In this document: positions 3,708 through 64,000 of the stretch, one piece after another
Position numbering within the stretch: the first letter of the stretch is position 1
How the letters are laid out: each line of letters starts with the position of its first letter
Assembly (NCBI GenBank): GCA_008632985.1
Contig: QPGO01000065.1
Coordinates: 186,001 to 250,000 of the forward strand
Source of the DNA: Psammoneis japonica
Lineage: Eukaryota
Direction: 5' to 3'
Length of the DNA: 64,000 nucleotides
Position numbers and translations under genes: made by a program
Notes under the pieces: model-generated
Told to the model about the DNA's origin: nothing
The model's input: the letters and a program-made list of their open reading frames with translations, nothing else
The model's database searches: none

Positions 3708-4008
3708 AACGAGGAAGTACGTGTCCAACCTCTCATTCAGAATGCTCTCGAAGCTTCAATCCTTGAAAAGATCGTCATCCCCATAACTCTACTGTATAGT
3801 GACAGACTGTGCTATTAGGTATGAGCTTAGTCATCGATGTGTGTCTTTTTATGTGCCGTCCCTTGTTTGCACCTACCAATGTTTGCGAACACATGTAGAT
3901 GGCGAGCAATCACATTATTAGTTTCGCACATGCACCTGACGAAACAACCAGCAGTGCAATCAACTTGGACGAGTGGCGCGAACAACATAACGCCATTGTA
4001 AACCGAGC

Positions 4009-4483
4009 TTTCCAAAAATATTGATTCCTTCGCAACGCCGGTCGGTAGTAAAAGGTGGTGGAAAGGACAACATGGTGATTCGCCAACTTCACCGCAGAGA
4101 CTACTTATCAGCAGACAGCAAAACTCAGGAGCCCATTGGTCGAAAAAGAAAAAGGTACGTCTTGAATCAAGGCATGCAATGCCCCTTATCCCGCAGAAAC
4201 ATCCTCACACGCACTTTTCATTGAACGGTTCCCTCACAGAAGCGACGGTTCTTTAAGTTTTGGTAGAAAAGGAAAAGCTCGTCCACCGGTTCAAGGCGGC
4301 TCCTTTTCTGACGAGAGTAACGCAGGTTGGAGATCAGGCGAAGGGTCAGGGGAAGGTGAATTTGTCAATCCGGTCCGTGAAAATGAAAGCATTGAGTCAG
4401 ACCAAGAGAGGACCATCGACCCGCTGGACCACATGACAGGAAACAACGGTGACAACATGTCAAGAACCCCAAGTACCACGGAA
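4009..4483 (+). pseudogene. Partial duplicate of the 3' end of the LRR receptor gene (intron retained, TM segment deleted)
   Basis: Aligns by eye with about 1546-2092; lacks 1611-1670 and has further small indels. Confidence 0.85.
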
Positions 4484-9000: not shown

Positions 9001-9562
9001 CGAAGCTGCACCGGGGTCGTTTCAAAATTAAATGCCATGGCTACTGCGACGTACGGTACTAAGATCTATAAGCACTATTCTCTCTACTAGTAGAGCATAC
9101 TGTTCGCGCCTTTTCTCGTTCGAGCATCGCCTTCTACTTTCGGACACGTGATAAAACTTGACAAGCAATTGATGTCACATTTCCAATGACGTGTATGCTG
9201 TATATATTTTTTTTGAAGAGTAAAAGGCTCGGAAACGGCATCCACCACGGCAGCCTAAGGAGCGAGTGAGTAGAAAGCATGCACAATTCACACATTTTAA
9301 GTGCAAGCCACTGTGAACAGAGAGGATCGAGTGAGGTGCAAGACCAAAATTGTCCATCAATCAAAATTCGCAAGCTCCATCAGGCTCCTTCCACAAGAGC
9401 AGCACAGCAACACCCAGGACATTCACCCAATTGACAATGATGCCACTGGAGCATGTCGGACGATGAAGTGTCACCCGAACTTGGTCAGGATGTTTTGGTG
9501 TTGCCCAGACTGGATGCAACTTTGGAGATGCACCTGGCCCTTGCAACTGGGATGGTGATTCA

Positions 9563-10148
9563 TTGCAAGCTTGCCAACAGATTGTGCAGCATGCTTTCCA
9601 CACCCCGAATGTTGTGGAAATCATGTGACCATTCCTGCCAATGCTCAATTTTCCTCCGGCTCCAGTGGCTTTGGTGGTTGCCTCATTTGGCCAAGCTCTC
9701 CCAGATTCTCTCAACCCGGGAGTGCTGCGAGATGGCCTGTGGATGTCCCCTGCATTCAAACTCCACATTGACGACAATGTGTGGGCCCACATTGCACGGT
9801 TCTTGGAGCACACTGTTTTTGCCAGTGCATTTGCCCTCTGCATTCTGCAAGGGTTTGCAAGCTTGCCAACAGATTGTGCAGCATGCTTTCTGCACCCCAA
9901 ACATTGTGGAAATCATGTGACCATTCCTGCCAAAGCTCAATTTTCCTCCGGCTCCAGTGGCTTTGGTGGTTGCCTCATTTGGCCAAGCTCTCCCAGATTC
10001 TCTCAACCCGGGAGTGCTGCAAGATGGCCTGTGGATGTCCCCTGCATTCAAACTCCACATTGACGACAATGTGTGGGCCCACATTGCACGGTTCTTGGAG
10101 CGCACTGTTTTTGCCAGTGCATTTGCCCTCTGCATTCTGCAAGGGTTT
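9563..10148 (+). repeat. Tandem duplication, 292-bp unit, 2 copies
   Basis: ttgcaagcttgccaacagattgtgcagcatgc starts at 9563 and 9855; the copies are near-identical. Confidence 0.9.
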
Positions 10149-10669
10149 CCACGTCCAGAGATTCCCAATGCCTTGAGCCTGGAAAAGCTCAATCTTCACA
10201 TTTCCTTTCTTTGGGAGCTGCTTGGATGCAAATGTGACACAAGAGCACCTGCTGTCAGTGCGGCAGCTCACAAGTTGCATGAGCTTTTGATCGTCCTTTG
10301 AGATTGGCTGGTGTGTCAGCATTGTCTCTTGGGTGACACAATGTCATCTCTGCTGGGCTTGTTGGAGTTCCATGTTTGGCATTGTCCCTGCACCGCTGTT
10401 GGCTCTTCTTGATTTGGGACAATTTTGGGCTGACTTGATTGCCCATCATCACATTGCACAGTGGATTCTTGAGCAGCAAGGCAGGAAGGAACAAATTTTG
10501 GACAACCTTCCTTGCAAGCTCCATCACCATGTTTCTTCTGTTCTCGAACGGGAAAAGGCCCAATTTGTCTGCCATGTGCACCTTGATGGCAAATGAATTG
10601 GCTCACACTCACCTTGCATCTGACAAAAACAAGGCTGCCAAAAGCAACCTTGCATGTGACAAACAAGGC

Positions 10670-11790
10670 TGCCAAAAGCAAGTGCATGTCGCAGGCAGCA
10701 AAGAACAATCAACCTTTCTGTCAATTCCATGTTGGAATCAACAGCGCACATGCAACATTGACCACGGGCAAAGTTTGTGATCAGCATCAACAAAACATGA
10801 CACAACAACTGGGATTCCCATGTTTTTGGCATCTTGGGTGGCATTCCTCCTCAACCTCTCCACAAAAATCAATCCAATCTGTGTTGCACCAAAAACCGAT
10901 TTGTCAATCTTGGGTCTCATTGGATTGCACCCCATCTGTCCAAGATCTTGATGTTTCTTTAAACATCCAAAAACATGATGCAATGCCTCCAAATGACATT
11001 CCCTGGATTCACTTACAATGAAACAAACATGAGACTTCACTGAAAATGTCAATCCTTCCAAGCTCAGTTGCCCGCCAACAAATTCCAGTCAACTGCAAAT
11101 GCCATGTCACTCCATCAGGTCCCAGCTCTGCCATTGCATCCAACTTGGGTTTGCAATCTGAGGCAAAGGGTTCTCAACATGGCTTTGAGTGCTTGGCCAA
11201 TTCCATCTTTGGCTGACAGCCTTCCAACAACTTTGATCACCTTCTTGACAAATGATTTTGAAGAACTTGCCCAAATTGTGCTGCCATCCTGCACCTGGAT
11301 CTTCTCAACGTCAGCACCCAGGCATTGTTCCAGCTCACTTCACTTCCTGGCTTGACCACACACCTCAAATTTGTTTGCTCAACAATCAATTTGCCTTGAT
11401 GAGAGACAATGAGAGTGATGTCATCCACATGGATCAATGACATCTCATGGCTCTCATGACCATCTTCACAAGTTGCCGCTTGGATCCAAACATCTGGGTC
11501 AGCCACAGTTGATTCAAATCCCATGTCACAAATGACAGATGCAAGATGCACGCTCCACAAATGTCCAGCACTCTTCAAAACACACAAAGCGCACACAACA
11601 ATGCAAACTTTGCCCCCAGCTTTGCCACACTCTTTGCCACCTTCAAACCATGTTTTCTCCCATGCACTTCACATTCAAGTGTGCATTCTGCAAATTGACA
11701 CCTGTGGCATCAATGCCGCCAGCAACAAACCAACTCAAGCACCACATCTTGCAACCACACTTGAATGTGCAATGCTGGTTGGTGCTTCTG
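10670..11790 (-). mobile_element. Degenerate Ty1/copia (CoDi-like) retrotransposon pol fragment: reverse transcriptase plus RNase H start
   Basis: ALCVLKSAG, DMGFESTVADPDVW, LIHVDDI (YVDD equivalent, 11420-11431), HLEALHHVFGCLKKH, SCFVDADH. No LTRs were recognised. Confidence 0.85.
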
Positions 11791-11814
11791 CAGCATGCTC
11801 GTCAGCGACAAACC

Positions 11815-12208
11815 TTGACAGATGCAACCATTCCAGCTTGAAGCAGCTCATTTTGTTGCATCAAACTCTTGACATGGCCCTTGTGTCATTTTCTCTCCCA
11901 ATGATCTCTGCGCTCTTCCACTTGTCCTGTGAGCACTCAAAATCATGGCAGGGTTTGCTGAGCTTGATGAAATGTTTTTCAATCCAGGATTTTGGAGTTG
12001 TTGGAACATCCACTTGCAGACTTTGCAAGTGACCCAAAAGCCCCAAAGCTGAGTGCATTTGGATGGTGTTGATTTGGATCACTCAAGCAAAGTTTCAAAA
12101 GTTTTGATTGGAGCTAAATCAAGCAGTGGAGGAGAAGTCGGATCAGCCAATGCACCTTGACAGCACCAATCACAGTCAGCATTGACTGCAATCAAACAAA
12201 CAAAAATG
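11815..12208. repeat. Mutated paralog of 22030-22438
   Basis: Colinear alignment, for example ttgacagatgcaaccattccagcttgaagcagctc versus ttgacagacgcgaccattccagcttgaagcagctc. Confidence 0.85.
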
Positions 12209-15200
12209 TGCGCACATGTGTTGTGCATTGGTTGATGACACAACAGCATGTTGAGTGTTGTCTTGTTGCTGCAGCTTCAAGTTGCAGGTCACAGGCCTCC
12301 ATGACTGACACACCATGGTGCACTGCATCATTTCGCTGTGTCCGCCCATCCTCAGTCCTGGCTGTGGCTGTGGCCAGGACGGGTCAGAAGATGGTCAGAC
12401 ACGTGTGATCTCGAGTCAGAACCAAAGCTGTGTTCTGCCACATGCAGTGGGTCAAAATGACCCATTTGTCACAGAACATGGAATCCACTTGGGTTCTGGT
12501 GTTGAACTTGCTTCTGAGCACTGCCAGCACACAACCCAATGATCACAGCATGTGGAGCCTGCATGTGTTCTGGTGCTGAACTTGCCGTTGGAAACAGCGA
12601 GTGCACAATCTGCATGATCATGGCCGCAACTGCTGCCAGCAGTGTCAACAACAATTGTTGCTTCAATTTGAAGCCTTCGGTGCTGAATTCATGCAAAAAG
12701 AAAAGAACAGAAGGTGGCATTTGTGGCAGCAGTTCAACTCTTCCACCGGGGCTGGCTGGCAATGAACTGACTGTCTCAGCAGAATTTGCAGCAGGTGCTG
12801 CACAAGCTGTGATCAGCAAGTGGGCTGTGATCCAAGAAGGAATCTGGAATCTTGGAGGGGGTGGGGTTTGAAGGCGGAACACAACGTTGATTCAGACTCG
12901 CCAAAAAGGAGACAGGAGACACACCAAACACAAAAAAACCAGAAGACATGACCGAGAGTGGACCTGCAGACAATGGCCAGGGAGAGCAAGCCACGGGGGC
13001 CATGAGGGCATGCAAGAAGAAAAAGAGGACCAAGACAGAGAAAGAACAGTGCAGAAAGACAAATCTTGCAAAGAAAAGGGTGCAGAACAGGGAATGCCAT
13101 GAGTGAAACCGTCGCGGTGCAACTTTCTGGGTGGACAAAAGGACCCAGCCACTTTGAAGTCTGCCCCAAATGATGCAACTCTTTTTGTTTGCTGCGATGC
13201 TCTGAACAACTGGCGCGTGTTGCGCAACAAAGATTGCGCGCGATGATTGGTGACAGACAAGAGAAGTGAAATCACACACGACAACCGGATCGTGGCAAAC
13301 TCCGGACTCGGGCTCGAGAGTGAGTTCCTGGCACTCAAGTGCTTCTTGTTGCCCTGTGTCTTCCCCCGAGGGCAAGAAGAAAAAGTGACATCTGTCTTCT
13401 TCTTGCTGCCCTTGCTCATGTCATGTGCAGCACTGCGCATTTTGGCTGCAAGCTTTCTTCTGAGCTTCCACGCATGGGTCTGTGACATGCTTTTGCTGCT
13501 CAAACTGGAACCAGGATCAATTCCTGTGCTTTTGTCATTGTTTGAAAATGGATCAATCTGTTCACCTTTTTTAGACCCTCTTTCATGGAAGCCGCTGCAT
13601 CACCCGGGCCAACTCTCACATGGCAAGGCACTCTTCCTCTTCATTTGCAGCTCTTCATCCAGTGGGGCACTCTGCAATGACAGGGTTAGAGATGCACGCG
13701 ACAAGACAACAGTCTGCTTGTGTTGTGCGCAGACGCACCTCTGACTTGGCCAGTTTGTCCATTGACTCTTTATTCAGCAGGGCAAAAGTGGCGCCAAAGG
13801 GTCAGAGATGCATGCGATGTGACAACAGACTGCTGACAGTGTGCCCAGACGTGCAGCACCTTTGACTTGGCCAGTTTGTCAATGAACTCTTTGTCAAGCA
13901 GGGCACTCTGCAAACAGGTGTCAGGTGGATTCTGACACTTGTCACAATGCATGTGCTCCCTGCAGAAAAGTCTTGGCGAACGACAACGATTAAAACTTTT
14001 CTTCAAACAGACGGGTCACTTGGCACCATGAGCTGCACCTGCTCCTGAAATGTTCCAAATGTCCTTTTAAATGTCGACACAGCTCATTGCAGTCGGAATC
14101 GTAAACCCCGCATGCATTGCCTTGACTTCAGGAGGGCCACTTAGCCACTTCAACAACATCTTCTGCCACCAGCACAGGTTGGTCAATCATGATCGCAAAA
14201 TCCAGTCCACCACTCACTTCAACAGTCTGCTGAGAATTGGCTCCTTCGTGCCTGAGATTCTGCTCAAAGGTGTTCAGTTTGGCAACCATGCTTCAATTCT
14301 TGCAGAGAATCCAGCAAATGCTGACAGAACTGTTGGAAGAGAACGCGCCTCATTTGGTGTTCTGACAGCATCATTGAGAAGAAACAGCGCTCATCTGTGA
14401 CAGTGTCTTACGTGCCGCAGCGGTGCCTTTGAGCACGCAAGCAACGAGGAGTCTCTCGCTGCCGCAATCCTTGTCAATCAACTTGGCAAAATCCTTGATT
14501 CAATTTTTTTTGTTTGCATGCAATCATGATGCTGGCCAGATGACCCTTGTGAGCAGCAGGTGATTCGAATTCCTGCGATCCAAAGAGCGGTTTTCTTGGA
14601 CCAATCACAAACATTGGGACATTGCAGAAGATTTCAACACATTTCGCCACCCCCTCTGGGATCACAATTGGAGCACAACGCTCCTCAGAAGGCAGCACAA
14701 GCTTGCTCTTTTCTGTCATTCTCCTCCTCATTGCCTGTCATTTGCCATCATGCAACAGCCACAGCTGCCGCCGCTCATTTTCTTGACCTGAAGCTCTTGG
14801 GCAGGCTGAAGTCGTGATGTTTTCTTTCTGTTCATGAGTTGGGAACGCCTCAATCTACGAGCCTGATTTCGCATGCAAGAATGACACCTGGCAGTGCAAG
14901 AACCAAGCAGCGGACACGTGCGAGAATCTTTGTTCCTTGCATTGTGGAGGACAACAGCCAGCTTGCAGGCAGCACCACAGGCTGACGACTGCCGCTCGCG
15001 GTTGAAATCACTGCAGACGATCAACCCGTGCGATGCAGAGTGACGCCTTGACATTTCTGTCATTGCATGGTGGCAATGATGAATGCAAGCAGAAGACTTG
15101 AGTGCCCTTCCAAATGACAATTGACCACTGCCATGTGACAGGAGTTGGTGGTGCCACCATCACCATTCTGCTGGAGAACCGTGGCCCAAATGCATCTGCA

Positions 15201-15654
15201 TGCAAGACAAGTGAACTTTAAGACTGGCTGAAGTCATGTGGTTTTCCAAAGCACAGCAACTGCAAATTCGAGTTCAAGGAGACTTTCCCGACTCACTCTT
15301 CTGCCATCTTTCATTCTTTTGTCTCCCTGCACAATTGATCCATGCTGTGTGGACGTCAAAGTGGGCGCAATGATCCTCTTGAAGTTTGATCATGTCAATC
15401 CTTTGGCGTCATTTGCGATTTGCTCATAGAACGTTTGGGTTTGTTGACTGTTGTCAAAAAGTGCCTGTGAAAGCATGTTCCAGATGATCAACAGCGGCCC
15501 TGCACCTTCTGTGCCTTGTTCATCCGACACGAGGCTGTCCGCCCAGTCAAGCACGTCTTTCTCAGAGTGTCTGACTTTTTAACATCTTGATTGTGTCTTT
15601 TCTTTACGATCACATTGACAGGATGCAAATCAACTTGATTTCGATGATGATGCG

Positions 15655-16500
15655 GTGGGGGTTCTGAAGCCTCGTAGCTCTGATGGGGTTGCCACGACTG
15701 TTTGCACTCACCCTCCTTTCAATGCAAACCAAGCCAAGCTTCTTCGTGACACCAATTCCTCTTCTAATGTGGACAACTTCCAGATCAAGGGAGGAGCAAA
15801 AGAGTTTGAGTTTCGACATGAAAATCTCTTTGTCTGTGTCAAAGACCTCAAGGAGATGCCTTTGTCGAGGAGTTGGTGCATGCGGCACCCGGTCCAAGAC
15901 ATTGGAGACTTCTTGACACTTTGGAAATGTTCTCAGCAGAAGCGTCACACCGCATCAAACAACCTCAATGCAGGGTCAAGTCATTCCATTGTGTCTGTCA
16001 GTTGGAACTTGCTTTGGTGGCAGTCCATCAGGCTGTGTGGCAACTGGCACTGACAATGACTCGGTGGCCTTGGGTGGCGGACAATGCGGGCGAGGAGGTG
16101 GCTTGCATTCAAAGCCGAAAGAGCAGATGAGTCACCACGCAAATTGTTGATCTTGCTGGAAGTGAAAGACAAAAATGACTGACTCAGATGATGAACTTTG
16201 GCAGAAAGAAGCGGCAAGCATCAACTTGTCAATCATGTCTCTCGTGAGATGCCTTCCCTCCATGGGGAGCGAGCATCCGGCCCAAGGTTGTTTGCGAGAC
16301 ATTCTTCGATGCCGTGATTCAAAGTTGACTCACACTTCTCGAATGTGTGTGATTGTCAGCGTCAATCAAGCGTCAACGGACTTTGATGAAACGCAGCATG
16401 CACTTGCTCATGCCACCGATGCCAAGAATGTTCAAATGTCTCGTGAGGCATGTGCACTTGAACAAGAAGCATGCAATCAACAGTCACCTCAAGCTTGAGG
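15655..16500 (+). pseudogene. Degenerate kinesin motor-domain gene
   Basis: TASNNLNAGSSHSI (switch I-like), IVDLAGSER (DLAGSER at 16149-16169), EAASINLS, CRDSKLTH, CVIVSVNQASTDFDETQHALAHA; frameshifted. Confidence 0.85.
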
Positions 16501-16697
16501 CTGCTCCTGGATGTGACAGAATGGCCCTCAAGCGGGATGCTGCCCCAACGGATGAGACGAAACGCCCCAACAGGATTTCCAAAAAGCACACAATCAATGG
16601 TCACCTCAAGCTTGAGGCCACTCATCGACGTGACGGAACGGACCTGAAGTGGGGTGCTGCCCCAACGGATGAGACGAAACGCCCCAACAGGATTGCA
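16482..16697 (+). repeat. Imperfect tandem repeat, period about 120 bp
   Basis: gtcacctcaagcttgagg...tgccccaacggatgagacgaaacgccccaacaggatt occurs twice. Confidence 0.8.
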
Positions 16698-17539
16698 CGA
16701 CTTGCAGAGAGAACCAACCCCCCCCCCTCAAGAAGAAGCCACCACAAAGAAGGACATGTCAAGGAAACACGTGGCAGCGGTGGCGACAGGCAGATCGGAA
16801 AAGAGACCAAAACAGACAAGGCCTGCCATTGATGGCATCAAGAAACACAAGGCAGAACCACAGGGGAGCTGCTGACGTCACTGAGAGCAACGTGGGCAGC
16901 GTTTTACTCTTGGCTGGACTCAAACGCAAGTCTGCCAGCGAATCATCTGACAAGGACTTCAAGAGAGCTTGGAGGACATGCCTGTGGTTGCCAAAGCAGA
17001 AGCTGAAGGCCTGCAGTTGGAGAACGAGGTGGCTGCACATCAAACGACTCCTCGCATCCCAACGGAGTGTCGCCCAAATGCATTCTCGGCATTGACACAC
17101 ACACCACTCCCGGTTCCAGGGATGGTCGACTCCTGAGCTGAAAAGCCCAAACAAAAAGCTGCAGCAAAGTGCAAGAGTCAAACGAGGGAGCTTCTTCTGG
17201 AGGTGGACTTCCTTGCTGCCATCAGCACGGCTCCCATGCCGGACACACGACGCACTTGACATTTTGCTTTGACGCAGAGCTCCGAGGAGTCGCACTTGCG
17301 TTCACGCAGTTCCTCGGACTGCACCAGCTGCAGGTTTTCAAACATCCCTCTTGAGGTTCTCTTTTCAAGAATGCTTCATGTGAGCACCATCCAAGGAGTG
17401 TGGCTTCTTTTTCTTTTGCATGCTCAGAATTCAATTCACAGGAAAAATCCTTGTCGGACTCGTCGCTGCATTCCGTGCCCAATGCAGTGAAAAAAGCCTC
17501 GTGGGACACGTCTTTGTTCAACACAAAGGTCCAACCATC

Positions 17540-17990
17540 CGGACAAAAAGGACAAGCCCAGTGTTGGGTTGCTTTCCTGCTCGCAGATTTCAATTCTAAA
17601 TGACTGCCCCACAGGAAGACCCGGTGCAGGCAGAGCCTTTTCCTGCTCGTCAAATTCGCAGCAAAGCTAAATAAAGACAGACAGTCACAGCGAGTCGCGA
17701 CATCATCGCAGGCATGAAACCCCGTTGAGGCACCTCGCCATGTTGTTCTCAATGCATGGGATCGGAATGACACATCATCGTCAATCAACTCTCGTCGACA
17801 GAGTGCGCACCTTAGAAAACGAGCTTCGAATCACTGCTGTCCGAGCTGCTCATGTTGCTCAAACATGTGAGACACCATCGACAGTTCTCTGAACAAAGAT
17901 GAAAGCTCTGAAGCTGCTGCTCGACTTGAGTCGTACCGTAAAGCTTCGGCCGTCGTGAATTCGAAGGTTCATCATCTTGCTCTTCTTTCA
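17540..17990. repeat. Partly mutated paralog of about 20530-20790
   Basis: Shared ccacaggaagaccc, cccgttgagg and aagcttcggccgtcgtgaa segments. Confidence 0.75.
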
Positions 17991-20884: not shown

Positions 20885-22400
20885 GAAGCCAATTTTGACA
20901 TATCGCAAGAGAATCGAGTAATGTCACTTGGCCGCATCCACCGACCTTTATTGCGTTGGGCGGCTTGGACCAAGAATGGCAAGCCCCTGTCTCTTTTCAA
21001 TACTGTATCTGGTTTCAACACGCAAAACTTCCATCCGGCACGGCCCTGTCGGTCTCGTCTTTTTCCAAATATCTGAGAAAGTTGGTACAAGAGAGAAAAG
21101 GTGCTCGCGGGACAGAGAAGATCCATACCCAGATGATAGCCAAACGCCATACCTTTTGCAGACAGACATACTTGCGGGTTTCGTGAGGTAGTCACAGCAT
21201 TTTTAGCATGTTTCGCATGTTTGACAATCGGGTACAAGGCAGAGGATGCATTGCAGCAACGCTGATTGTACAAGTCTCGCAATTGTTTCTTGCCACTTGG
21301 CAAGACACTCTCCAGCAATACCACCTCCTCTTGACTGACCCGCCATTTTTCGTCGTAGTCGCTCGTAGGCTTCCCTTGTGCACACTTCTTTGGCTCGTAC
21401 ATTCTCCAAGACATCCCCATCGTGCAAACGAATCTAGTAAAAAACACAACGAGAGTAAGAAAGAATGTAACGAGAGTGAGATTCGGAATCCCAACATTCA
21501 TCGCTAAGCCTTACCGATTGGCCCACCACCTCCCTCTCTTCTTCCTACTCCCGATCCCAAGGCGAGACCAACTCTCGGGCCTACAGGACCACCTCCGCCA
21601 AACCCGACAGTCTTGCCTACTCCAGATCCAACTCCGTAGTCGCCTCTTCCTACTCCCGATCCGACAGCGCGGCAAACTCCGGAGCAACAAGACTACATAC
21701 ACCAAACCCGACACCTTTGCCTACTCCAATCTGACTGGCCCACCTCTCCTCCCTCACTTCTTCCTACTCCCAATCCCACGGCGAGACCCTTTCTCACAAC
21801 TTACAGCAGGCAACAAACATCAATAAAACAAAACGGGAAATGTCCTTCTCGGTTGGCATGGGCTGTAGATGATGGTGTGTAGCTATCTGGAAATACAGGT
21901 ACATTCTCCACTGTCTCTCCTGTACCCTCTTGAATTTCACGAGTCGTCGGGAGACTTGAATAAGTGGGTGGGGGCGTGACGGACTGCACAGCGAGAGTTC
22001 GAGAGGACGATGCTGAACGTGTATCATGATTGACAGACGCGACCATTCCAGCTTGAAGCAGCTCTTTTTGTTGCATCGAACTCTCGATATAATCCTTGCA
22101 TATTTTTCTTTCCCAACGCTCTGCCACTTGTCCTACGAGTACTTGAAATCACGGTGAGGTTTGCTGAGCTTGATGAAATCACGGATTTTTCGATCCACGA
22201 TTTCGGAGTTGTTGGAACATCCAGTTACGGACTTTGGAAGTGACCCGAAAGTCCCAAAACTGAACAAACATGGATAAGCCACTGATACTGTATCGATTTT
22301 GGATCATTCAAATGAAGCTTCAAAAGCTTTGATTGGAGCTAATCGAGTAGCTGAGCGAGAATTCGATGAAAAATGAGCCGACACTTTGACAGCACCAATT
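20860..22400 (-). pseudogene. Disrupted hypothetical gene(s), family shared with the copy in block 1
   Basis: Protein-like minus-strand fragments with stops; three internal cttcctactccc repeats at about 21536-21790; homology to 11815-12208. Confidence 0.35.
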
Positions 22401-22856
22401 ATAGTCAGTATCGATCGTAAATCAAACAAGCGAAAATGCTAATATAAAGATACTTTAACGTATCGTGTGTCATCTCGTTATATTGTAGGTCGTATGGGCC
22501 TCCGCAACTCTAAACGCCATGGCGCAGCGCAGCGTTGTCCCTTTTAGGGCTACCGTACCGTACCGTATTCCTCGAGATATACTCTCCATCGTTTATCTTT
22601 GAATTTTTTTTGACACCTGTGGACAAACGGGACACTGCGTACTCCAGGGCGTAGATAGTACTGAGTGCTCCGTGGACAAGCGTAGCAAGGCGTAGTAGCT
22701 GTATCAAGTGCTTCACGAACGATGGGGAGTGAAAATCTCTCGCGAAAATTTGCGCGAAACAGGTTCTCAGCGTCTGTCAGTGACACCACCACCCATCATT
22801 TGCTCCCCCGCTCGTCTCCCATCTCGCGTCGCTCGCCCATCGCAAAACCATCAACC

Positions 22857-24088: not shown

Positions 24089-24299
24089 AATACTCCTAGC
24101 TGGTGACTCAGTAACAACACTACTCGAAGCAGCAGACGAATAATTATTGTAAATCTGACATTAGGATTATGTCACTAGACTTGTACTCTAGGTTTCGCGC
24201 AAGTGAGACGACTTTCCAATACAGAAATCTGCAAAGAGAATGTGGAGAACACCTTCAACGTCGACAGCACCTCTCCTCATTTTTGATTTTCCATAACAT

Positions 24300-25516
24300 C
24301 AAAGCTGTCGTTGATGTTGAATCGTCCAAAAGGCTCACAAAAAAGTTGAAGCTGTCTCAAGCTGGCCCTTGAATTCTGTCTGCAAGGCCTGTTGCAAGTG
24401 AGGCAGCAGACAGGAGAAAAGTGCAGGCATTTTCAAAGAGTGTCTGTGGCCACTTGGCTTCTCTGATCGCTTTTTGGCTTCCACTGCCATTTTGAAACAA
24501 AAGGAGTTGTGGGGAGAAAAGGGACAACAGTTGGTTTTTTTAGACAAAATCCCAGCTTGCTCCACAATTGCATGGCAATGGCACAAACAGGAGCCAGTCT
24601 CCTTGGTGCTTTCCACTCAGTGAGCAGCTGACACACTGCTTTGTTGTGGGTGTCATTGGAGCCATTCTTCTGAGGGGCACTGAACCAACAGGCTGACTTT
24701 TGGTGGCAAGCTTGAGGTCCTTTTAAAGCTCTTTTTCATGCACATGTTGCATGACCAAAGCGCACCTGGCAGGAGCTGAGACCAGAGAAGAAAAACTGCT
24801 TCTGTGTCTGTGGGGCCAGTGTGCCCCATTGAAGACAAGCTGCAAGCTGCACAAGACACACAATTGTGGACATTTGATGTTTCATGGTCATGCTGCTTGG
24901 GACTCCCTGTTTCTCTGGCAGGTCTTTTTGGTGGTGCAGAAGTCACATTTTTGCCTCAGCATGAATCCAGTGTTTTGAGCCTTAAAAGTGCAGAGCAAAA
25001 CAAGCAAAAGTTCAACAAGTTTGACAGCCAGTGGCTCTCACACAGAGATGAGGATCAAGCTCACAGCACCAGCATGCAACATTGTGGTGGGACATTGTGG
25101 GAGGACAAGTGTGGGCTGCCTCAGCAATGGGGACAACAAGCACAGCTGGACAAAGGCAGCCCCCCCCCCCCACCCACCCACACATGTTCCTTGGGGATGC
25201 AAGATCACCAAAAATCTTGAGAAGGAGCCCTCATGAGCTCAACTTGTTCAAGCCACTGTTCAAAAAACTCTGGAGCAACAAAGTTGTGCAGAAGCAGTGC
25301 CAGGGCCCCAGAAAAGTGTCTGGAATTTCATTGTTTTTTGACATCCCTGGTGCTGATTCTGTGATGAATTTCCACTCAGTGACATTCTAGACTTTTTTGG
25401 CATTTCTGCTGAGGCCCTGGCACTGCTTCCATGCAAGTTTGTCATTCCAGAGTTCTTTGTCAGCTGGCAAACTTGCTTCATTGGCACTTGGCAACAAACA
25501 AGCCAACTCTGTTTCT

Positions 25517-25558
<42 letters not shown>

Positions 25559-26630
25559 CCTCCCTCTCCCTCTCATCTGTGGAGTTGTCTTCAACAAACA
25601 ACCCAGCCAACATTGTCTTGAGCATCTTGCACCCAGGCTTGCTTGGAGAACAATCTCCAAAGCCTGCTTTGAGTCCAGCTTCTCTTTTTGAGCTGGTGGC
25701 TGCACCAAGCCTTGAATTTTGCTGGCCAAAAAGATGTGCTGCTGCTGGGTTGATTGGTTTGGTGTGTGCAAGCCCTGGCTGCGCCCGTTGTTCAAAGCTG
25801 GCTGCAAGAGCACTCTGTGAGCAGCAGCATGCCCACACAAAAAGGTGCGGGCAACAAAGCTTCAGAGATTGCAACAGCATCTCAAGCACTGCCAGCTGCA
25901 ATTTTTGTGCTGTCACCCACCTCTCCTTGCTTGTGTCCTCTCCACATTGTGTGAGCTGATGCTGCTGCCTGGCAGTTTGCTGGGGCTGTGCTCACCACTG
26001 AAGCCTCTTCTGACTTTGTTGTTGACACATGAAAGTGCACAACAAGGGCAGCAACATTTCAAGAGCTTGTTGTGGCAAATTGCTGGTGGGTTCAGAGAGA
26101 ATGTCACACCACGACTTGCTGCCACAAAGCCATTGTTGCTCAAGAATGTGCGCCATCATTGCCCCTGCTGGGTTGAAAAATGAGCAAGTTTTCAGCCACG
26201 TGGGGGTGCTGCCAGTTTGAGAACAAAAACACATGGCACTGCTCTTGTTTTCCTGTGGGCAGCAGCCTCTGGCAAAAGTTGCTTGGGCCGGCACCACGCC
26301 GACATTTTTGACACCAGGGATGCTCACCTCTCTCAAGGGATGTGGGTGGCCAGACCAAGCTCTTGCTTCAAACTGATCTGATGTGCCTGAACCCACAGCA
26401 TGCAGCCCAATGCAGTGTTTGCACAAGTGCAAACACAGCACAAGCAAGTTTTGCAAAGCTTGTTTTTCTCTTCTTGGAGGTCTGAGCTTCTTTTTCAAGC
26501 AAGTCCGCCGCGCGCGGGACCGACGGTCGCCGCCTGGCTGTCGCCTTCAGTGCAGAGTGCGGCCTCATCGCTGTGGCTGTGCGCTGTGCTGTGTGCTGTC
26601 GGCTGTCGCGGTGTCCGCCATGACGCTCTT
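24300..26630. other. TpA/CpG-depleted hypermutated block 2
   Basis: Only a handful of TA, mostly TTA/TAA; CpG nearly absent until about 26290. Confidence 0.9.
25519..25574 (+). repeat. (CT)n microsatellite
   Basis: Directly visible ctctctct run. Confidence 0.95.
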
Positions 26631-26850
26631 CCTTATCATCTTCAATGTACTAAGCGGCATCTGCTGTTCACTGATCTACTGTTAAAGGGGGGTACAGAGC
26701 TAAGCTGTTGTTGCGCTGCTAGTAATTCGCTTCTTGCCAATGAGACTCTCCTTTGTGCCAACATTGACTGCAGCAACTGGTTCCACAAGGCTGATATCGA
26801 GTACTACGACGAGACACCGCATTGGTAGAATTATTCATGCTCACACCATC

Positions 26851-27949: not shown

Positions 27950-30900
27950 AAGCTTGCACAGCAATTGGCAATGATTTTAGGTGCCAAGTTCCAAAGAATG
28001 TTCCACATGCAAAACCATGGTGCCAATTCTGTGAAGGTGCACAAAAATGACAGTGATTGACTAATTTAGCAACGGTCATGATTCAAGCAAAATCTTGTCA
28101 AAAACAACTTGTCGTCTGGCATGATGTTGTTGTTCACCAAGTGCCAAGGGTGCGTGGCTCACCCTTCCCACAGCCCCAATTGTTTGCTCTCGTTTGGTGT
28201 TCTACAACTCATTTTGCTGGAGCACAAAGTGTTGTCTCTCATTGCTTCAATGCTTTTGCATTGTTGAAATGTGCAGTGCAGGTGTTGCCAGTTGAGTCTG
28301 GAGGTCGGGGCAAATCAAGCACATGTCTCTTGCCTGGAGTCCATGTCACTCCTGTGTCTTTGACTGTGGGAAGTTGCCTGTTTGCTTGACCCATCAGGCT
28401 GCAGCTGTTGAAAAGCAGACAGCATTGTTTGTCTGTGAAGCAGCAAAAGCTTGTCAAGCAGATCCTGCTGTTGGTGGAATGCAGGGTTTGGGGTTTCTTC
28501 TGTTGCACAAGTGATGTGGTGCAGCAAGTCATCACTTGCAGGGAGCACTGATCAAGCATGCGACTGACTTGCAATTTTCTTGTTGTGTCTCTGCAGCCCC
28601 CACCCTTGCATTTTTTAGTGACATTTTTCACTTTGAAGATGCACAAAAGCTTGAGGGCCATCTTTTGATGGTGCTCTTGAGGCAACATTGCACCATCTGA
28701 GCAACCGTCATTTCAACTGCATTTTTTGACTTGTTGAAACTTTTCCCAACAGACGCAGAAAGTCTGAAAGTGCAGTGCAGCAATCTTTGCTTGCGTGCAA
28801 CTCATTTTGTGCAAATGTCAATGGAGGACTGTGATGGCAGCTGCAGTGCTTGCCATGTGATGCCATTGCTGTTTTGATGCAGCTGGCTGTGGTTTTGCAC
28901 AAGATGAGGCATTTGCTGTGATGCACACCAGTGCTTGACATTTGTTGACATGTGCTGGACTGGACAGAGGTGCTGATTGCCTGCACACTCTTTTGTGAAT
29001 TTTTTGTGTTTGCTTGTTGTTGGTTGGGGAGTGCCATGCAACAAGTGTTCCACTGAAATGGTGGAGCAACAGAAGAATGTCAATGACAAAGCCATTGGTG
29101 GTTTGTGCTTCCAAAAGGTGAGTTTTACATGCCTGAGAAACCTTTCTGTGAAGAACAAGAGATTCAGCACTGACGTGCAAGTCAAAGTGCTGGCTCTGAA
29201 GCATGTCTGCTTTTGCCTCTGGCTTTCATGTGTTCTGGGGAGTCAATGGGTTTCACTCCAGCAAGCTGCTTCTCTTCTTGATTTGCCTGGCCCCGCCTTT
29301 TTCCTCAGCCCATCTGGGGGTGAAAACAAAGCCAGTCACTTTTCTTGGAGCCTTTCCAGGCCTCAACACCATGACTGAAGCCCCAACAAAGTCTTGCAAA
29401 TGAGCACCAGCCCTTGCCAATGGGTCTTTGTTTCAGGTCACAAATGACAAAAAATGAAAACTGTGCTTGTGGCAGCAGCATTCGAACAAGCACCAGTCTT
29501 CTCCTGCAAGCAGAGCTTTTGATCAAAGTGGTGCTGCTGAACAAGGTGGGCCATGGGCATGACGGCCAATTCCTGAGTTCAGTGCAATGGGACATCATGG
29601 GCCAAGTCCTTTGTGCAGGTGAGAAAAATGAGGGGAAACAAGTTGCAGCAAAAAGACCACCATTGCTTGATCACACTGGGGTGCCACACTTAAACCACCA
29701 CAAAACTGCTGATCATCTTTTGCAAGCTGAGAATGGACACCCTGAGGCAGAGCCAATTGGACCTGCTCCAGCCGCTGTCAGAAACATCGTTGATTCCCAA
29801 AATGACAGTGCTGTGAAAATGGTGGTTGGCCAATCCCATGGATTTTGGCAGCTTGTTCACATCATGAGGGCACCTCTGGGTGTTGAGAACCCTTCAAAAC
29901 AGAACGCAAAACTTTTGCAAGTTCTGCTGGCAAGATGGTGGCATCAAAGCCAGAGGTCATCACAAATGGCACAACCTTGGAGAGAAACACCACCACCACA
30001 GCCATGCTGCAATTTGGGAGAGGCAGACTGCAACACCACAGCCTCAGTTGCCCCCACAAGGGGCAGAATGATCTTTGAGAGTGGTTTTGTGGCACTTTTT
30101 GGAGAACAGGCAAAAGTGGCTGTGAAAGGAACATGCACACAGCTGTCTCCAGACTGTGATGTCAAGGACTGCCTTTGCTTCTCAGGCTTGCTTCTTTGCA
30201 AGCTGGTCAGGGCTTTTGCTTTTTCTTTCTCAGGCACGACATTGTTGTCAATTTTGGAAGCTTTTTCATCCACATGTTCTTGTCTCCTGCATTGGCAGTT
30301 TCAGGAACATCAACAGTTTCCTCATTGGCAGCAATGCCAACATCCGCGTTGGCCACAAAAACCAAGATTGCTTTGAAGGCACACACAAAGGTCACATCTT
30401 CTTTTGAATTCACAGCTGCATTTGACTCAACCATGCATTGTGCAAACCTGCTTGGCATTCTTGCTGATGCGTTGAGGGTTTGTCATCATCCTTGTCCTTG
30501 TGCATTGCCACAGAGCCCTGCCCATCTTCAGCAAGGCAAGCTGCAGCCAGCACTGCAACCATGCAGGAACAGACATTGAGGTGANCCAGGTGCATTGCTT
30601 TCAAGGTCACATCTTCTTTTGAAGTCACAGCTGCATTTGACTCAACCCCATGCATTGTACAAACCTGCTTGGCATTCTTGCTGCTGTGTTGAGGGTTTGT
30701 CGTCATCCTTGTCCTTGTGCATTGCCACAGAGCCCTGCCCATCTTCAGCAAGGAAAGCTGCAGCCAGCACTGCAACCATGCATGAACAGACATTGAGGTG
30801 ATCAACAGCTTCTGCAAGCAACCCTTGTTTCACCAAGGTGCCCAATGTGGATGCAACTGTGGCACAAATGTCATCAACTGCTTTGCTTGAGACCTCGTTT

Positions 30901-32845
30901 GAATTTTTGACTTTCAACAAGTCAAAGGAAGTCAAAGAGAGCCAACATGTCAGTCTTGTTCTCAGTGAAGAGGGTCAGGGATGTCACACCCACATGCTTG
31001 CAAAATGGCAACTTGATCAACTCACTCAGATAAAGGGCCCAACAAGGCTTGGTCTTTGCAAAGAGAAAGGCATTGCTGAGGGACACAGAATTTGCTCAGC
31101 CAACACAACGTGTGCAAATCGTCCTCATGTGCTGCAACCAGCACCAGGAAATCTTTCTTTCAACAGTGCACTGCTTTCATTTTTCAAAAGACAATTGCTT
31201 CTTCTCTGGCAACAAAGAGAAAAAAGGCCAGATTCATTGACACTGGGAAGAACAAGGAGATGAGTGCGCAGTCAGGACCGTGGGGCAGCCTTTTCACATA
31301 TCCAGCACACTCCACCTGCCTCACACCAGTTTTTTCTCACAAAAGCATGTTGTTTCAGAACAGATTGCTCAAAGGCAACTCAGTCACACAGCAAAGTGCT
31401 GCACACACAAAGAAAAATTAAAGTCACAGCATCACACATGTCTTTGCATCCTGTGCACTTGTCTTCTACACAGACAAGCTGTGCTGGCACACTGGGATCC
31501 ACAGGAAGAGGAGGCACATTGGCCACAACAACCCAAGTGGATTCTCTCACCCGCTGAAGGCTCTTCCATTCTTCAGCAGCAATGTGCAGACCACAGAGTC
31601 AGACCACAGCAAGCAACCCAGAGAATTTGAGCCAATCACCATCTGCAAATGAAAGAAAGATGGGGCTGGCAAGAAACAATGCTTTTCATGGTGGAGTCCC
31701 CCACAGCACCACCACAAAGAGTGGCAGCACCAAGAACTCTTGTTCACAAGATTTGCACAGTCAATTTTGCTTGCTGCTGTCTTGCCTTTCTTTCCTCCTT
31801 TTGTGCAGCTGCAGGTCAGGTTGCTGCACTTGGTGACCAAGCAGACATTGTTCTGCACATGTGCTTTCTTTTCTGCCAGATTCAAAGTGGGTCAGTGGGC
31901 TTCCTGCTTTGTGAACAAGGGTTGTCATTGACAGCAATGAACAGCACCGCTGGCTGCAGGTGGGCTGCCCACAGGTCCAAAGTGACAGGTGCTCTTGCAT
32001 TGTTGGCTTGATGATCAACTTGCACCAGCAAACAGCCAGCATTGCACATGTGTCTTTGCTCTTGTGACAGAGCATTGTGCGCGGCATTGTCGGAGAGTGA
32101 ACACAAACCATCTGAAATTGCACTCTTTGGGAATCAGCCAATGTCACAACTTTCAATGCATTTGATCCTCTGGTTTGAGGAGTGAGTGGGATTGCTTCAT
32201 CAGTGCCCATGTTGGAGTTGCTTTTGCAGCTGCCAATTGGCTCACAAGGGCTTGTGATCCGCGCCAAGCTTTTGCACAAATGTGCCCATGAAATCTTCCG
32301 ACAAGTTCAGTGCAGTTGTCAGTCCAATTGTCAGCCACCCCCTGGTTTGAGTGTGTCAACTTTTAAGAGACATTGCGTGCTTTTTCAAAAGAACAGCGGG
32401 ACTCCATGATGTCTTCTGCCCTGGAACGCGCCCTTGAAAGCATCTGAGCCGGAGCAAAACTGGGAATGCTCAACTTGCTCAATCAGTTGTGCCAGCACAT
32501 CCATCCAGTTTGAAGTGGCCTGGTCAGGTTCTGTGCTTGAATTGCCACTGCTGTCATCCATTGCCAGCAAAGGCAAAAGATCTCCATTGATTTGATCTTG
32601 GACCAAAGTCATTTTGACAAATTGTCAGGCAGAAGGAGTGCTGTGCAAACATGGCACCCCAGTTGCCTGGCATGGAAGAAGGAACTTCCCGTGTGGAAAA
32701 GCAACCCTTGCTTCACAATGAGTGTGCACACCTCAAGAATCCGTTGTGCTTCCTGCTCCTCTTCTGTGATGGCATCCCGACCATCACTTCCAACGGCACC
32801 TGCAGAACAGATCGCTTGCGAGAAAAAAGCCAATTTGCGTTTCGC
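27950..32845. other. TpA/CpG-depleted hypermutated block 3
   Basis: TA and CG both very rare over 4.9 kb; abrupt return to normal composition at about 32845. Confidence 0.9.
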
Positions 32846-38236: not shown

Positions 38237-38435
38237 CTAGCTTGTATCAACTTCAAAATGAACGATAGAGGGAGGCGGAGCAGCACCTGGTGTCTTTCAG
38301 AATCGTCGTGTTCTTTCTCCGGGGATTGATTGAATCGACTCGCTGTCGGTGTGTGTATCAATTTGCAAAATCGAAAACTCGAAGTGGAACACGAAACGAA
38401 TTGTTATTGAGATAAGTCTACACTATACTGACAAC
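38237..38435 (+). repeat. About 200-bp dispersed repeat, copy 1 (copy 2 at 47151-47358)
   Basis: ctagcttgtatcaact...gaattgttattgagataagtctacact is present in both copies. Confidence 0.9.
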
Positions 38436-44452: not shown

Positions 44453-44619
44453 TCAAGGCAGTAGAGTCTTCAATGTATGATGCGATTTATATTTTTATTT
44501 GATTTCGAAGATGTCAGGTAATGAAAATGTCATTTGCAGTCTTCAGGACTATATAAATTTGAATGCATGATGCACTGACACCTCAAAAGGATGGGCCGGT
44601 CCTACAGCATGCCGTACGA

Positions 44620-47100
44620 GAGAAAGCAAAAGCAAACATCCATCGCTTGCCCAAACCGCAACACCCAGAGCATTTGTTTCAAGCAAGCACTCGTGGTTGC
44701 ACCATGCTCTCTCTGTGGCAACTTGTCACCGCAGGAGAGCAGCACAAAACAACCTGCAACTCAATGGACACAGCTTGCCACCCCTGCATCATTGCAGCGG
44801 CCAACCTCATTGAATCCTGCCACAAGCATGTGCCCAGACAAGACTCATCATTGCTTCATTGTTCCACCAGTCAAGGAAAAGAGACTGCCCACAGACTTCC
44901 AGAAACACCACTCTTCATGGTCCTGTGCCAGCGATGCTCTTGCTTGGTGTGGCTGAGAACCATGTTTGTGCAACTTGCCACACATTCCATCACATTGCCG
45001 CACACAGCAACCTCTTGTTGCATGTTTTAAAATGAAAAAGTTCAGGGCCAGGGCCAACAATGAGTTGTTTGTGAGTGCCTTCATCAGCTCTCCCAGCCAA
45101 CAAAGTGCCTCTCTCTGGCAGTTGAGTGTGTGAGAGAGCACATCTCTTGCAGCTTCATAAAAACAAGAGTGGAGAGAGTTGTCAGTTGTGGATTTTGTGG
45201 TGGTAGATCAAGTTTCCCATTCTTCTGGGTCTTGTGAACACAATGATGCTGACACAATGACTGACATGAGCAAGAGGGTGAAATCATCGCAATGCTTTGC
45301 AGGATGAGAAGTGCTGTGTGGCGCAGCTTTTTTTGCCACATGTCCTTTTTGCTGCACTGCTTTGCTCTAAAATTGCCTCTGCTCTTGTGACTGACAATGT
45401 GTTGCCCACAAGCTTGGTTGCAGCAGATGAGGCAGCAAAAAAGTGAGGCAAAGCTGCGCCTCTTTGCTTGTCAAGCATGTTGAGAAACTGCCTTGCTGCT
45501 GACAGAGTGGGTGCTTTGTGCTCAACTGCATGAAGATGCAGCAGCTTCAAGATCATCCACCAAAAGTTGTTGAAAAGCAGGTGCAGAAAGTGTTGGAGAA
45601 CTTGCAAAAAAGACCTGTGTGGGGCTTTGGCAGGCTCAAGTTGGAGCAGAGCTGTGCCACAGATGTTGCAGGGCAGATGACACACTCAAGAAGGCACAAG
45701 AGAAGCTTCAAGGTGTTTTGACAAATTCAAAGTCAAGGTGGCAGAGACTTTTGCAAGCTCTAAAAATTCCAAGGCAAGTGGAAGGCCAAACATTTGTTCA
45801 AACAAAAACAAAACAAAACATTGGCGTCACATGGGCAGCACTCATCTGGCTGTGATTTTGTGCACCATGTTGTGCAAAACCCAGTGCCCATCCATTGCAC
45901 ATTGACCTGTAAAAATTTTGCACCTCTGTGCACACACCCAACACCAAAAAACACTCCACACCATGGTGCGTGAATCTCAGAAGCCTGTCATTTAATGACC
46001 ACAATGACTCAAGATGGGCAATGCTTCACAGTTCTTGCATCAAACACTTTGGTTGTTCACTGGCTTTCTCTTTTCTTCATCAACATGATCATTTGATCCA
46101 AGTGCAATGTGTGAATGCCAGCTGCACTGTGAATGCATTTCACAATTGGTTGTTCAAGAAAACCCGGTTTTTGTGTTGAATGTTTTGCAGGAGCATGCAG
46201 TGGTCTGGGAAAACACAACAAACTGACATGCCCAAAGTGCAGCACCCTTTGCACCAAGTGTCAGCGCCCCTCTCTTGAGCGCACTCTCCACAAGATGGAA
46301 AAGGAAGAATGCAAAGAAAGGGTCTCTGATCATGAAATGGAGCAACCCAGCAGAAAGAAAAACTTTGTTCAACACTTTGAAACCATGCTCAAGAAGCTGC
46401 CAGTTTGATTGGTTTTTCCTTGGTTGGATGGAAAGTCAGTGGGAAGCTGGGTCCATGAACTGTCATCACTCCAAAAGACAATGTTCCTTCTGAAATGGGA
46501 GATGACCATCAAAAGGGTTTTTTTCAAGTTGGTGAAACATCTTCACTCAATTGGGGTCTGTGACAACTTGAGCAAGACTTGGTGATGTGACCCAACTGCT
46601 CCTTTGCAGATCTTGCAAAGTCAGACAAGAACAGCTTTCTGTGTGAGAATCATGTGTTCCATCTCTCTTGTGGCAAAACAAGAAATGAAATTGAGGAAAG
46701 CAGGAGGGGTGAAAAGTTGGACATTGGGCTGTTTGTTCAAAAAGGTGTTTGTTGCTGTCAATGTCACAAGGAGTGCAGGATGCTTGAATGCCAGCAGCAG
46801 CATTTTGCAGGCTCGCCAATTGGCCAACACTTGGATCTCATCTTTTTTCTCTGCTTTCTCGATTCAACCGCTCTCCACTTGGCAGCTTTGCACCAAGACC
46901 AAGCAGGCATCATGGATGAGCTTCTAAAATTCAATCCTGAGGTGGTTGACGTGCTGGGGGAAGAGGGCATCACTCCTCTTTGATTGCTGCCATCGAGTGG
47001 GACAATGTGGAGGGGGCACGAATTCTCTTGCATTGACGAGCGTGGCGCAACGGCGGCCCTTTGCTGCGCAGCGTGTGCAGGCAATGAAGCAATGATTCTT
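44620..47100. other. TpA/CpG-depleted hypermutated block 4, with possible RING-like and ankyrin-like remnants
   Basis: TA is rare; CVECF..LTCPKC at about 46170-46240; TALHLAA and GATALCCAACAGN ankyrin-like segments at about 46865-47090. Confidence 0.85.
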
Positions 47101-47150
47101 CTACTTCTAGAATGGCATGCTAAGGAGCAAATTCAAAAGCACAATGTCTA

Positions 47151-63900: not shown

Positions 63901-64000
63901 AGAGAGAGCAGAGAGAAGAAACAACAGAAAGGTCACCTGTGAAAGTGTTGGCTGGAAGTTTGTGATCCCTCATGACAATGCCTTGCAGCATGCACAATGT
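60990..64000. other. TpA/CpG-depleted hypermutated block 5 (runs off the window end)
   Basis: The few TA seen after 61100 lie in TTA/TAA contexts. Confidence 0.9.
62280..63936 (-). pseudogene. Degenerate ELWxxDGT-like repeat (beta-propeller-type) protein gene
   Basis: Repeated LTP.DGKL(H/F)F.A...HG.ELW.H.P units in ORFs 62588..62908, 62937..63446 and 63443..63703; hydrophobic segment at about 63900. Confidence 0.7.

Follow-up and report, generated by a model that had tools for sequence, protein, structure and literature searches.

Two kinds of DNA alternate in the 64,000-nucleotide stretch of Psammoneis japonica contig QPGO01000065.1 which was analysed here as a whole (the window): ordinary gene-bearing DNA, and five tracts that have lost nearly all of their TA dinucleotides, are poor in CG and are rich in CA and TG. 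A dispersed repeat of about 400 bp occurs once in the first of these tracts and once, about 10 kb away, in ordinary DNA. The initial annotation of the window had described the tract copy as a mutated and the other copy as an unmutated paralog. The tracts were delimited from the dinucleotide profile and the spacing of TA in the window, and the features that carry the argument are the following.

11815..12208, forward strand: converted copy of the dispersed repeat of about 400 bp, in tract 1; 10 of the 13 TA and 15 of the 20 CG of its partner read CA or TG
22030..22438, forward strand: unconverted copy of the repeat of about 400 bp, in ordinary gene-bearing DNA; 13 TA and 20 CG per 383 aligned bases
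17535..17745, forward strand: second converted paralog (pair 2), at the right edge of tract 1; ordinary partner at 20526-20728
9299..17596: tract 1, 8,298 bp, contains 11815-12208; TA 19, CG 215, CA 916, TG 836; longest TA-free run 1,662 bp
24295..26633: tract 2, 2,339 bp; TA 4, CG 31, CA 240, TG 261
28204..32845: tract 3, 4,642 bp; TA 9, CG 43, CA 543, TG 515
44616..47101: tract 4, 2,486 bp; TA 8, CG 29
61194..64000: tract 5, at least 2,807 bp, continues past the end of the window; TA 4, CG 33

The two copies of the repeat (pair 1) were recovered by a BLAST comparison of the window with itself (74.6% identity, 421 columns). They were aligned by MAFFT (11815-12208 against 22030-22438), and dinucleotides were counted over the 383 aligned bases, 308 of which are identical; the remainder comprises 58 transitions and 17 transversions. 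TA and CG in the copy at 22030-22438 are close to ordinary density. Only one of its 13 TA sites is kept in the tract copy, five read CA and five read TG, and only two of its 20 CG sites are kept, with eight reading TG and seven CA. The remaining 14 dinucleotides are kept at 53-100%, the low values being those of dinucleotides which overlap converted TA or CG. Indeed, the four individual changes listed by the initial annotation are all present in the alignment, and its statement that most alignable TA and CG sites are converted, with other positions much better conserved, is borne out by these counts. The per-dinucleotide count was also meant to reveal whether TA changes no more often than other dinucleotides containing T or A; TA is altered at 12 of 13 sites as compared to 84 of 300 such dinucleotides (Fisher p = 4e-6), and CG is altered at 18 of 20 (p = 2e-8). 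Expressed per base, transitions occur at a rate of 0.41 in TA, 0.40 in CG, 0.10 in CA/TG and 0.09 elsewhere.

The differences also have a direction. TA or CG of the ordinary copy stands opposite CA or TG of the tract copy at 25 sites, and the reverse occurs at none (binomial p = 6e-8), which means that 25 of the 33 TA and CG sites went to CA or TG through a single transition. A-to-G or T-to-C changes make up 30 of the 58 transitions. Counts, polarity and tract setting agree, and from this we conclude that 11815-12208 is the mutated and 22030-22438 the unmutated paralog, as had been proposed. The divergence at other sites is about 13%, and the two copies are therefore old paralogs. In pair 2, TA is converted to CA at seven sites and to TG at none, and just two CG are converted. 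A 22-base word taken from the repeat of about 400 bp had no exact match in metagenome contigs or viral contigs.

The composition seen in the tract copy extends over all five tracts, which together comprise 20,571 bp, or 32% of the window, and contain 44 TA in total. Counted on both strands, TA amounts to 2.1 per kb in the tracts and 41.5 per kb in ordinary DNA, so that about 95% of TA is gone. CG is reduced to 17.1 from 57.4 per kb and CA is raised to 109.4 from 72.9 per kb, and pyrimidine-purine steps are nearly equal in number (238 versus 245 per kb), as is the G+C content (0.488 versus 0.474). Relative to expectation, TA in the tracts is at 0.03 and CG at 0.29, and the ratio of TA to AT is 0.04. 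TA-free runs reach at most 1,662 bp in the tracts and 202 bp in ordinary DNA; at ordinary TA density, the chance of a TA-free kilobase would be about 1e-18. A simulation in which ordinary DNA is subjected to two rules, conversion of TA and conversion of CG, matches the TA, CG and CA content of the tracts. Two other spectra were considered as well: AA is undiminished in the tracts (83.0 per kb, versus 78.3 in ordinary DNA), which led to the rejection of a polymerase-eta-like 'WA' spectrum, and a general pressure from A/T towards G/C is suggestive only, with such transitions at 11 of 68 bases in AT steps and at 13 of 150 elsewhere.

The tract borders are sharp: TA, spaced at 10-20 bp outside, disappears over 50-100 bp. 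No similarity was found among the five tracts, even when transitions were ignored. One further repeat bears on how the tracts are chosen.

38229-38434 and 47143-47358: dispersed repeat of about 220 bp, 85% identity, unconverted in both copies

The copy at 47143-47358 starts only about 40 bp beyond the right border of tract 4, yet it retains its TA. Since this repeat is unconverted in both copies, repetition alone is not sufficient for targeting.

The losses of TA and of CG behave differently along the window. TA per 500 bp is bimodal, with 39 of the 128 windows of this size holding at most four TA, 85 holding at least nine, and only four being intermediate, of which three lie on tract borders. 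CG per 500 bp, in contrast, is spread evenly from 0 to 23 in TA-poor windows and lies at 14-46 in ordinary ones. Tract 1 alone illustrates this, since its CG per 400 bp rises from 1-8 before about 12.9 kb to 9-19 beyond that point, and TA is near zero throughout. Because TA is bimodal and CG graded, and because pair 2 has seven TA but only two CG converted, we conclude that two separate, uncoupled processes are at work: an all-or-none, saturating removal of TA and a gradual removal of CG.

Sequence context separates them further. TTAA is largely spared, with 14 occurrences in the 20.6 kb of tracts and 47 in 43.4 kb of ordinary DNA (63% of the ordinary density), while survival is 16% for CTAA/TTAG, 7% for GTAA/TTAC and 0-4% for the other seven TA contexts (TTAA versus the nine others, p = 2e-11). 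CG survives best with G or C on its outer flanks (GCGC 64%) and least with A or T on its outer sides, namely at 18-22% in TCGA (18%), ACGA/TCGT and CCGA/TCGG. As to strand, changes to CA and to TG are intermixed along the tract copy of pair 1, and the CA-versus-TG skew varies no more in the tracts than in ordinary DNA, from which we conclude that the process acts on both DNA strands. For the same lack of excess variation in skew, long one-strand runs were dropped as a feature of the tracts. The conversions of TA in pair 2 are one-sided (7 of 7 to CA, p = 0.016), which may reflect a short run or chance.

These patterns allow us to weigh an explanation without any dedicated editing, in which the tracts are old DNA at equilibrium in silent, modified chromatin, where CG decays by deamination of methylated cytosine and a bias of repair or polymerase fixes T-to-C changes at TA. 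The graded loss of CG fits, as does its weaker survival between A/T flanks than in GCGC, which is the behaviour of spontaneous deamination; the divergence of about 13% at other sites implies ample time, and the persistence of conversion after local duplications, described below, would suit a continuous process. TA, however, is lost in an all-or-none manner, and no tract stands at an intermediate TA level, although CG there spans its whole range. The sharp borders and the TA-retaining repeat about 40 bp outside tract 4 likewise speak against such decay, and we estimate that a loss of about 95% of TA against about 9% of transitions elsewhere would need a TA rate tens of times higher. Moreover, a corresponding signature was caught in the making in Bigelowiella natans, where TpA hypermutation of integrated viral DNA was followed in mutation-accumulation lines (Mettrop et al., bioRxiv 10.64898/2026.01.13.699255) and, according to that preprint, arises in bursts and is confined to some lines. 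We therefore regard passive decay as unlikely, although it deserves more weight than the other alternatives considered below.

Duplications that lie within tracts reveal when the conversion took place.

9563..10151, forward strand: 292-bp tandem duplication in tract 1, 97% identical; all 7 transitions are among CA, TG and CG steps
30388..30801, forward strand: 217-bp tandem duplication in tract 3; 3 of 3 transitions are step changes (TA/TG, CG/TG, CG/CA)
16463..16694, forward strand: 117-bp tandem duplication in tract 1; step changes account for 10 of 12 transitions, among them three CA-versus-TG double differences

In four in-tract duplications, 27 of 33 transitions are among TA, CG, CA and TG steps, as compared to 40 of 93 in seven duplications of ordinary DNA (p = 1e-4), with columns in such steps making up about half in both sets. 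One copy of the 217-bp duplication retains TA where its twin has TG. At seven sites of the in-tract duplications, one copy has CA and the other TG; such double differences imply that the site was TA or CG at the time of duplication and was later converted independently in each copy. Similarly, a related sequence in the public sequencing run X1 has TG where the window has CA, at 24737-8 and 24741-2. Conversion thus occurred in place and continued after local duplications. The sole N of the window, at 30585, lies between the two copies of the 217-bp duplication.

What the tracts encoded can hardly be recognised any more. Stop-to-stop open reading frames (ORFs) of at least 55 amino acids were taken from the tracts (286 in total, 142 of at least 90 and 144 of 55-89 amino acids) and compared with Pfam. 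One clear match was obtained, and one other match was below threshold and at chance level.

16166..16495, forward strand: kinesin motor-domain fragment (pseudogene) in tract 1; Pfam PF00225, E = 1.1e-7; aligns with KIF20A-type motors

The best relative of this fragment in a large protein collection is 46% identical. Both tyrosines of that relative within the aligned stretch read cysteine and histidine in the fragment, which is the expected outcome of TA-to-TG and TA-to-CA changes in a tyrosine codon. Since the remaining motor is split over several reading frames, the fragment is a ruin. The 286 ORFs contain no reverse transcriptase, integrase, transposase, capsid or polymerase domain recognised by Pfam, a search of viral contigs with two tract ORFs gave no relatives, and the longest tract ORF (333 amino acids) has 0 matches among 1.84 billion proteins. 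The heavy mutation may hide the origin of the tract DNA. Furthermore, 15619-16053 gave no match in a PDB search, and no Rfam family was found in the window.

These contents bear on two further explanations. The composition could have been imported, the tracts being foreign insertions, viral or other, from a genome which avoids TA and CG, with the repeat copy captured by and evolved in that genome. Sharp borders, an almost complete lack of recognisable content and the absence of mutual similarity would be compatible with this, and the hypermutated regions of B. natans are, according to the preprint, integrated giant-virus and virophage DNA. Yet five unrelated tracts in 64 kb would take five insertions from such a source, the in-tract duplications show conversion going on after duplication, and neither capsid, polymerase, integrase and transposase domains in the 286 ORFs nor viral relatives of the two tract ORFs searched for could be detected. 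Import is therefore very unlikely. Still harder to defend is selection, by which functional tracts would be kept free of TA and CG, comparable to UpA and CpG avoidance in RNA viruses or to the avoidance of nuclease sites. CpG and UpA are indeed described as jointly suppressed in RNA viruses and cytoplasmic RNAs (PMC3829696), but selection would have to hold TA at 0.03 of expectation across 20 kb of unrelated sequence, in tracts without a recognisable intact gene and with a kinesin remnant that has lost its tyrosine codons and is split over several frames, and the changes are random as to strand. We give this explanation hardly any credence.

The ordinary DNA between the tracts carries genes for a leucine-rich repeat (LRR) kinase, a TatD nuclease, an MCM protein and a DEAD-box helicase. 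The TatD exon has 349 relatives, of which the best is 59% identical, without a self-hit; those named to species are nearly all diatoms (Nitzschia, Cylindrotheca, Fragilariopsis, Pseudo-nitzschia and Mayamaea, with Epithemia found in a search for longer proteins). Protein homology thus points to a diatom, or to a near relative of diatoms, that the searched collection lacks, and probably not to B. natans, provided that the proteins of the published B. natans genome are included there. A plant origin, initially suggested by the LRRNT_2, LRR and kinase matches, was rejected in view of the TatD relatives. A receptor-like gene at 45-9000 on the forward strand comprises LRRNT_2/LRR repeats (45-1778) and a protein kinase domain (7870-9000) and has an internal duplication (1669-2092 versus 4073-4484, 87% identity). 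On the reverse strand, an open frame of 792 amino acids at 52080-54455, which has no Pfam match, contains three tandem units of 297 bp (52705-53584, 88% matches). A perfect 133-bp tandem duplication at 41383-41649 lies in ordinary DNA that is richer in A+T (G+C 0.43).

Sequencing reads support the tract sequence. Run X1 contains a fraction of 0.87 of the sampled tract 1 words, and contigs which were built from it independently, using exact 31-letter words, differ from the tract DNA at 0-1 positions. Their word depth (55-72) is like that of neighbouring ordinary contigs (56-65). The ordinary repeat copy is covered as well, by an X1 contig identical over 21699-22330 and by a spliced contig of a second run, X2, spanning 21515-22534; the joints of X2 contigs have GT..AG or CT..AC ends, although the run is tentatively labelled as DNA. 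X2 has no cover over most tract bins, and this was not used as evidence of silence. A third run, X3, contributed no contig, and no RNA data set was listed as containing tract 1. Since the X1 contigs match the tract DNA, an artefact of assembler or polishing is ruled out.

An error further upstream would be the misreading of modified bases by the sequencing chemistry or base-caller, inherited by the assembly. The sequence is present in one run only, whose library type is not recorded and which is possibly the source of the assembly, and this is compatible with such an error. Misreading predicts mixed calls per site and not clean CA or TG, whereas the independent word contigs differ by 0-1; the tract also holds frameshifted pseudogene remains and the ordinary divergence of about 13%, and the B. 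natans signature came from Illumina reads, according to the preprint. An artefact of this kind is thus highly improbable.

Two observations from the reads concern further copies. Over a short part of tract 1 (13259-13619), X2 contigs are at least 90% identical to the window and then continue into unlike sequence containing TA and CG, which suggests an expressed, unconverted relative of 13259-13619 elsewhere in the genome. In addition, the summed X1 word depth exceeds that of single contigs nearby about 3-4-fold at 22007-23340 and about 2-3-fold at 10001-11334; depth is not copy number, but further copies (at least 90% identity) of the ordinary repeat and of parts of tract 1 may exist.

Taken together, we consider it likely that 11815-12208 is a repeat paralog within a diatom nuclear tract under directional, region-confined hypermutation, whose TA part resembles the process in B. 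natans and whose CG part is methylcytosine decay. Directly observed are the substitutions with their contexts and polarity, their restriction to tracts and the fact that they went on in place after local duplications. As to mechanism, a first component would turn TpA into CpA or TpG, i.e. A into G on either strand, and would run to saturation (about 95% of TA lost) in an all-or-none manner per tract, with borders within about 50-100 bp and with TTAA exempt. Its chemistry would most likely be that of a targeted deaminase which converts adenine in DNA to hypoxanthine. A second component, uncoupled from the first and graded between tracts, would turn CpG into TpG or CpA, most simply by deamination of methylated cytosine, if the tracts are methylated, silenced DNA. 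The process could serve to disable unwanted DNA.

The comparison with B. natans rests on the preprint (bioRxiv 10.64898/2026.01.13.699255), according to which the mutation rate of two integrated viral regions is about 6e-7 per site and generation, a thousand times the background, and 230 of 231 new mutations in both regions are A-to-G or T-to-C, all on TpA. It also reports 124 clusters of TpA-poor, CpA+TpG-rich 1-kb windows in that genome and proposes an ADAT2-like DNA adenine deaminase as the cause; the words CpG, TTAA, flanking and diatom are absent from its main text. The likeness concerns the change itself, in which TpA is turned into TpG or CpA by A-to-G or T-to-C on either strand (here at 10 of 13 sites in pair 1 and at seven TA in pair 2), the restriction to certain nuclear regions at the kilobase scale, and the TpA-poor, CpA+TpG-rich clusters of mostly unannotatable content. 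By the thresholds of the preprint, which are the B. natans genome's own 5% cut-offs and serve as a yardstick only, 20 of the 64 1-kb windows pass, in runs of 8, 5 and 3 and two runs of 2.

The systems also differ. The host here is diatom-like, as judged by TatD (best match 59%). One-kb windows that lie entirely within tracts hold 0.01-0.12 of the expected TA, compared to 0.45 in the giant-virus region of B. natans, and the tracts take up 32% of the window, as compared to 124 clusters in about 95 Mb there. The rate in B. natans was measured de novo. The TA half probably represents the saturated end state of the process caught there, in another phylum and over a far greater part of the local genome.

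Several points weigh against directional hypermutation of this type as the explanation. CpG is also lost here (15 of 20 sites in pair 1; 0.29 of expectation in the tracts), and the preprint reports no C-to-T excess for B. natans; since the loss of CG is graded and independent of that of TA, it may be superimposed separately on a B. natans-type process. The targets there are integrated viruses, and here nothing viral or transposon-like was recognised, as is evident from the domain, viral-contig and protein searches of the tract ORFs described above. The polarity of pair 1 is read from the 25:0 asymmetry and from the composition of the tract around the converted copy, in place of an outgroup copy, and neither the BLAST comparison of the window with itself nor a self-comparison collapsed to purines and pyrimidines, which is blind to transitions, yielded tract-versus-ordinary pairs beyond the two. 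The two-rule simulation misses AT (64.7 per kb predicted, 51.7 seen) and GC (63.0 predicted, 76.4 seen), a misfit which may stem from a difference in baseline between coding and non-coding DNA or from a weaker third process; the trinucleotides ATG, ATC, GAA and AAT are low relative to the simulation, and these residuals look like such a baseline difference. At 47 metagenome loci with TatD relatives (236 kb), no TA-free run exceeded 449 bp, although these are short, gene-rich assemblies, so that this is weak evidence, and the longest TA-free runs there are G+C-rich or CG-rich ordinary DNA. Finally, X1 is possibly the window's own source sample and would then not be an independent biological replication.

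If directional hypermutation is nevertheless at work in a diatom, the process is not a curiosity of one species; in the literature searched, regional hypermutation from A:T to G:C specific for TpA appears only in one 2026 preprint on one chlorarachniophyte, the other papers found being on fungal RIP and CpG. It could then explain a large share of a genome's non-genic DNA, and such DNA would be invisible to homology-based annotation of repeats or viruses, in line with the one clear domain match in 286 ORFs. The sparing of TTAA and the absence of an overall strand preference would give a first glimpse of the activity's footprint, and there would be strong reason to seek a natural DNA adenine deaminase. 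To our knowledge, no natural enzyme of this kind is in use for base editing, where the enzymes are laboratory-evolved. Near-zero TA, an excess of CA and TG and unchanged G+C provide a simple scan statistic for other algal genomes. With less than even confidence, we extend this to a DNA adenine defence which edits TpA, is common to distant branches (Rhizaria and Stramenopiles) of the Stramenopiles-Alveolata-Rhizaria (SAR) group and is saturated here over about one third of the local genome, by a natural context-specific deaminase directed to chosen chromatin domains. Such a shared defence would erase tyrosine codons, TAA and TAG stops, TATA boxes and AATAAA signals, with TTAA alone being spared.

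Among other known systems, repeat-induced point mutation (RIP) of fungi is similar in that dense, dinucleotide-specific transitions on both strands are confined to stretches that end as gene ruins and are seen in paralog pairs. RIP consists of C-to-T changes only, mainly at CpA, and it creates TpA and A+T-rich DNA, whereas TpA is destroyed here, 30 of 58 transitions in pair 1 go from A:T to G:C, the TA/AT ratio is 0.04 and G+C is not lowered. RIP also mutates all copies, whereas 22030-22438 is untouched and neither copy of the repeat at 38229-38434 and 47143-47358 is converted. With half of the changes going from A:T to G:C, TpA lost and not gained, G+C kept and one copy per pair untouched, we conclude that the process is not RIP. 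RIP acts before meiosis and requires an enzyme of the RID/DNMT4 type. Diatoms are described as carrying RID-related DNMT4 genes of unknown function (PMC9998398).

The decay of methylated CpG resembles the CG part in its products (eight TG, seven CA), in its gradation (0-23 CG per 500 bp in TA-poor windows) and in its dependence on the flanks (TCGA 18%, GCGC 64%), but it cannot remove TA. Editing by ADAT2/3, hyper-editing by ADAR and the action of AID/APOBEC share with the tracts a deamination that leads to transitions in a fixed neighbour context and is used against viruses and repeats. In tRNA, the adenosine targeted by ADAT2/3, A34, is preceded by U33. A 5' U or T before the edited A is also found with ADAR, and adenosine deaminases act on RNA save for two reports of activity on DNA (both as stated or cited in bioRxiv 10.64898/2026.01.13.699255, the former in its Discussion). 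The changes described here, in contrast, are in genomic DNA, on both strands and without strand runs, and AA is not depleted. ADAR-type editing through an RNA copy predicts clusters on one strand; pair 1 has five CA and five TG intermixed, and pair 2 is one-sided. Contrary to a retro-copy route of this type, no reverse-transcriptase domain was found by Pfam in the 286 tract ORFs. A precedent for TA loss by repair bias, and not by deamination of A, is very-short-patch repair of Escherichia coli, in which T:G-mismatch repair favouring C turns the TA in CTAG into CA or TG and leaves CTAG scarce. That process is bacterial, genome-wide, mild and restricted to one tetranucleotide, whereas the loss described here affects all TA contexts but TTAA and is found in the tracts only.

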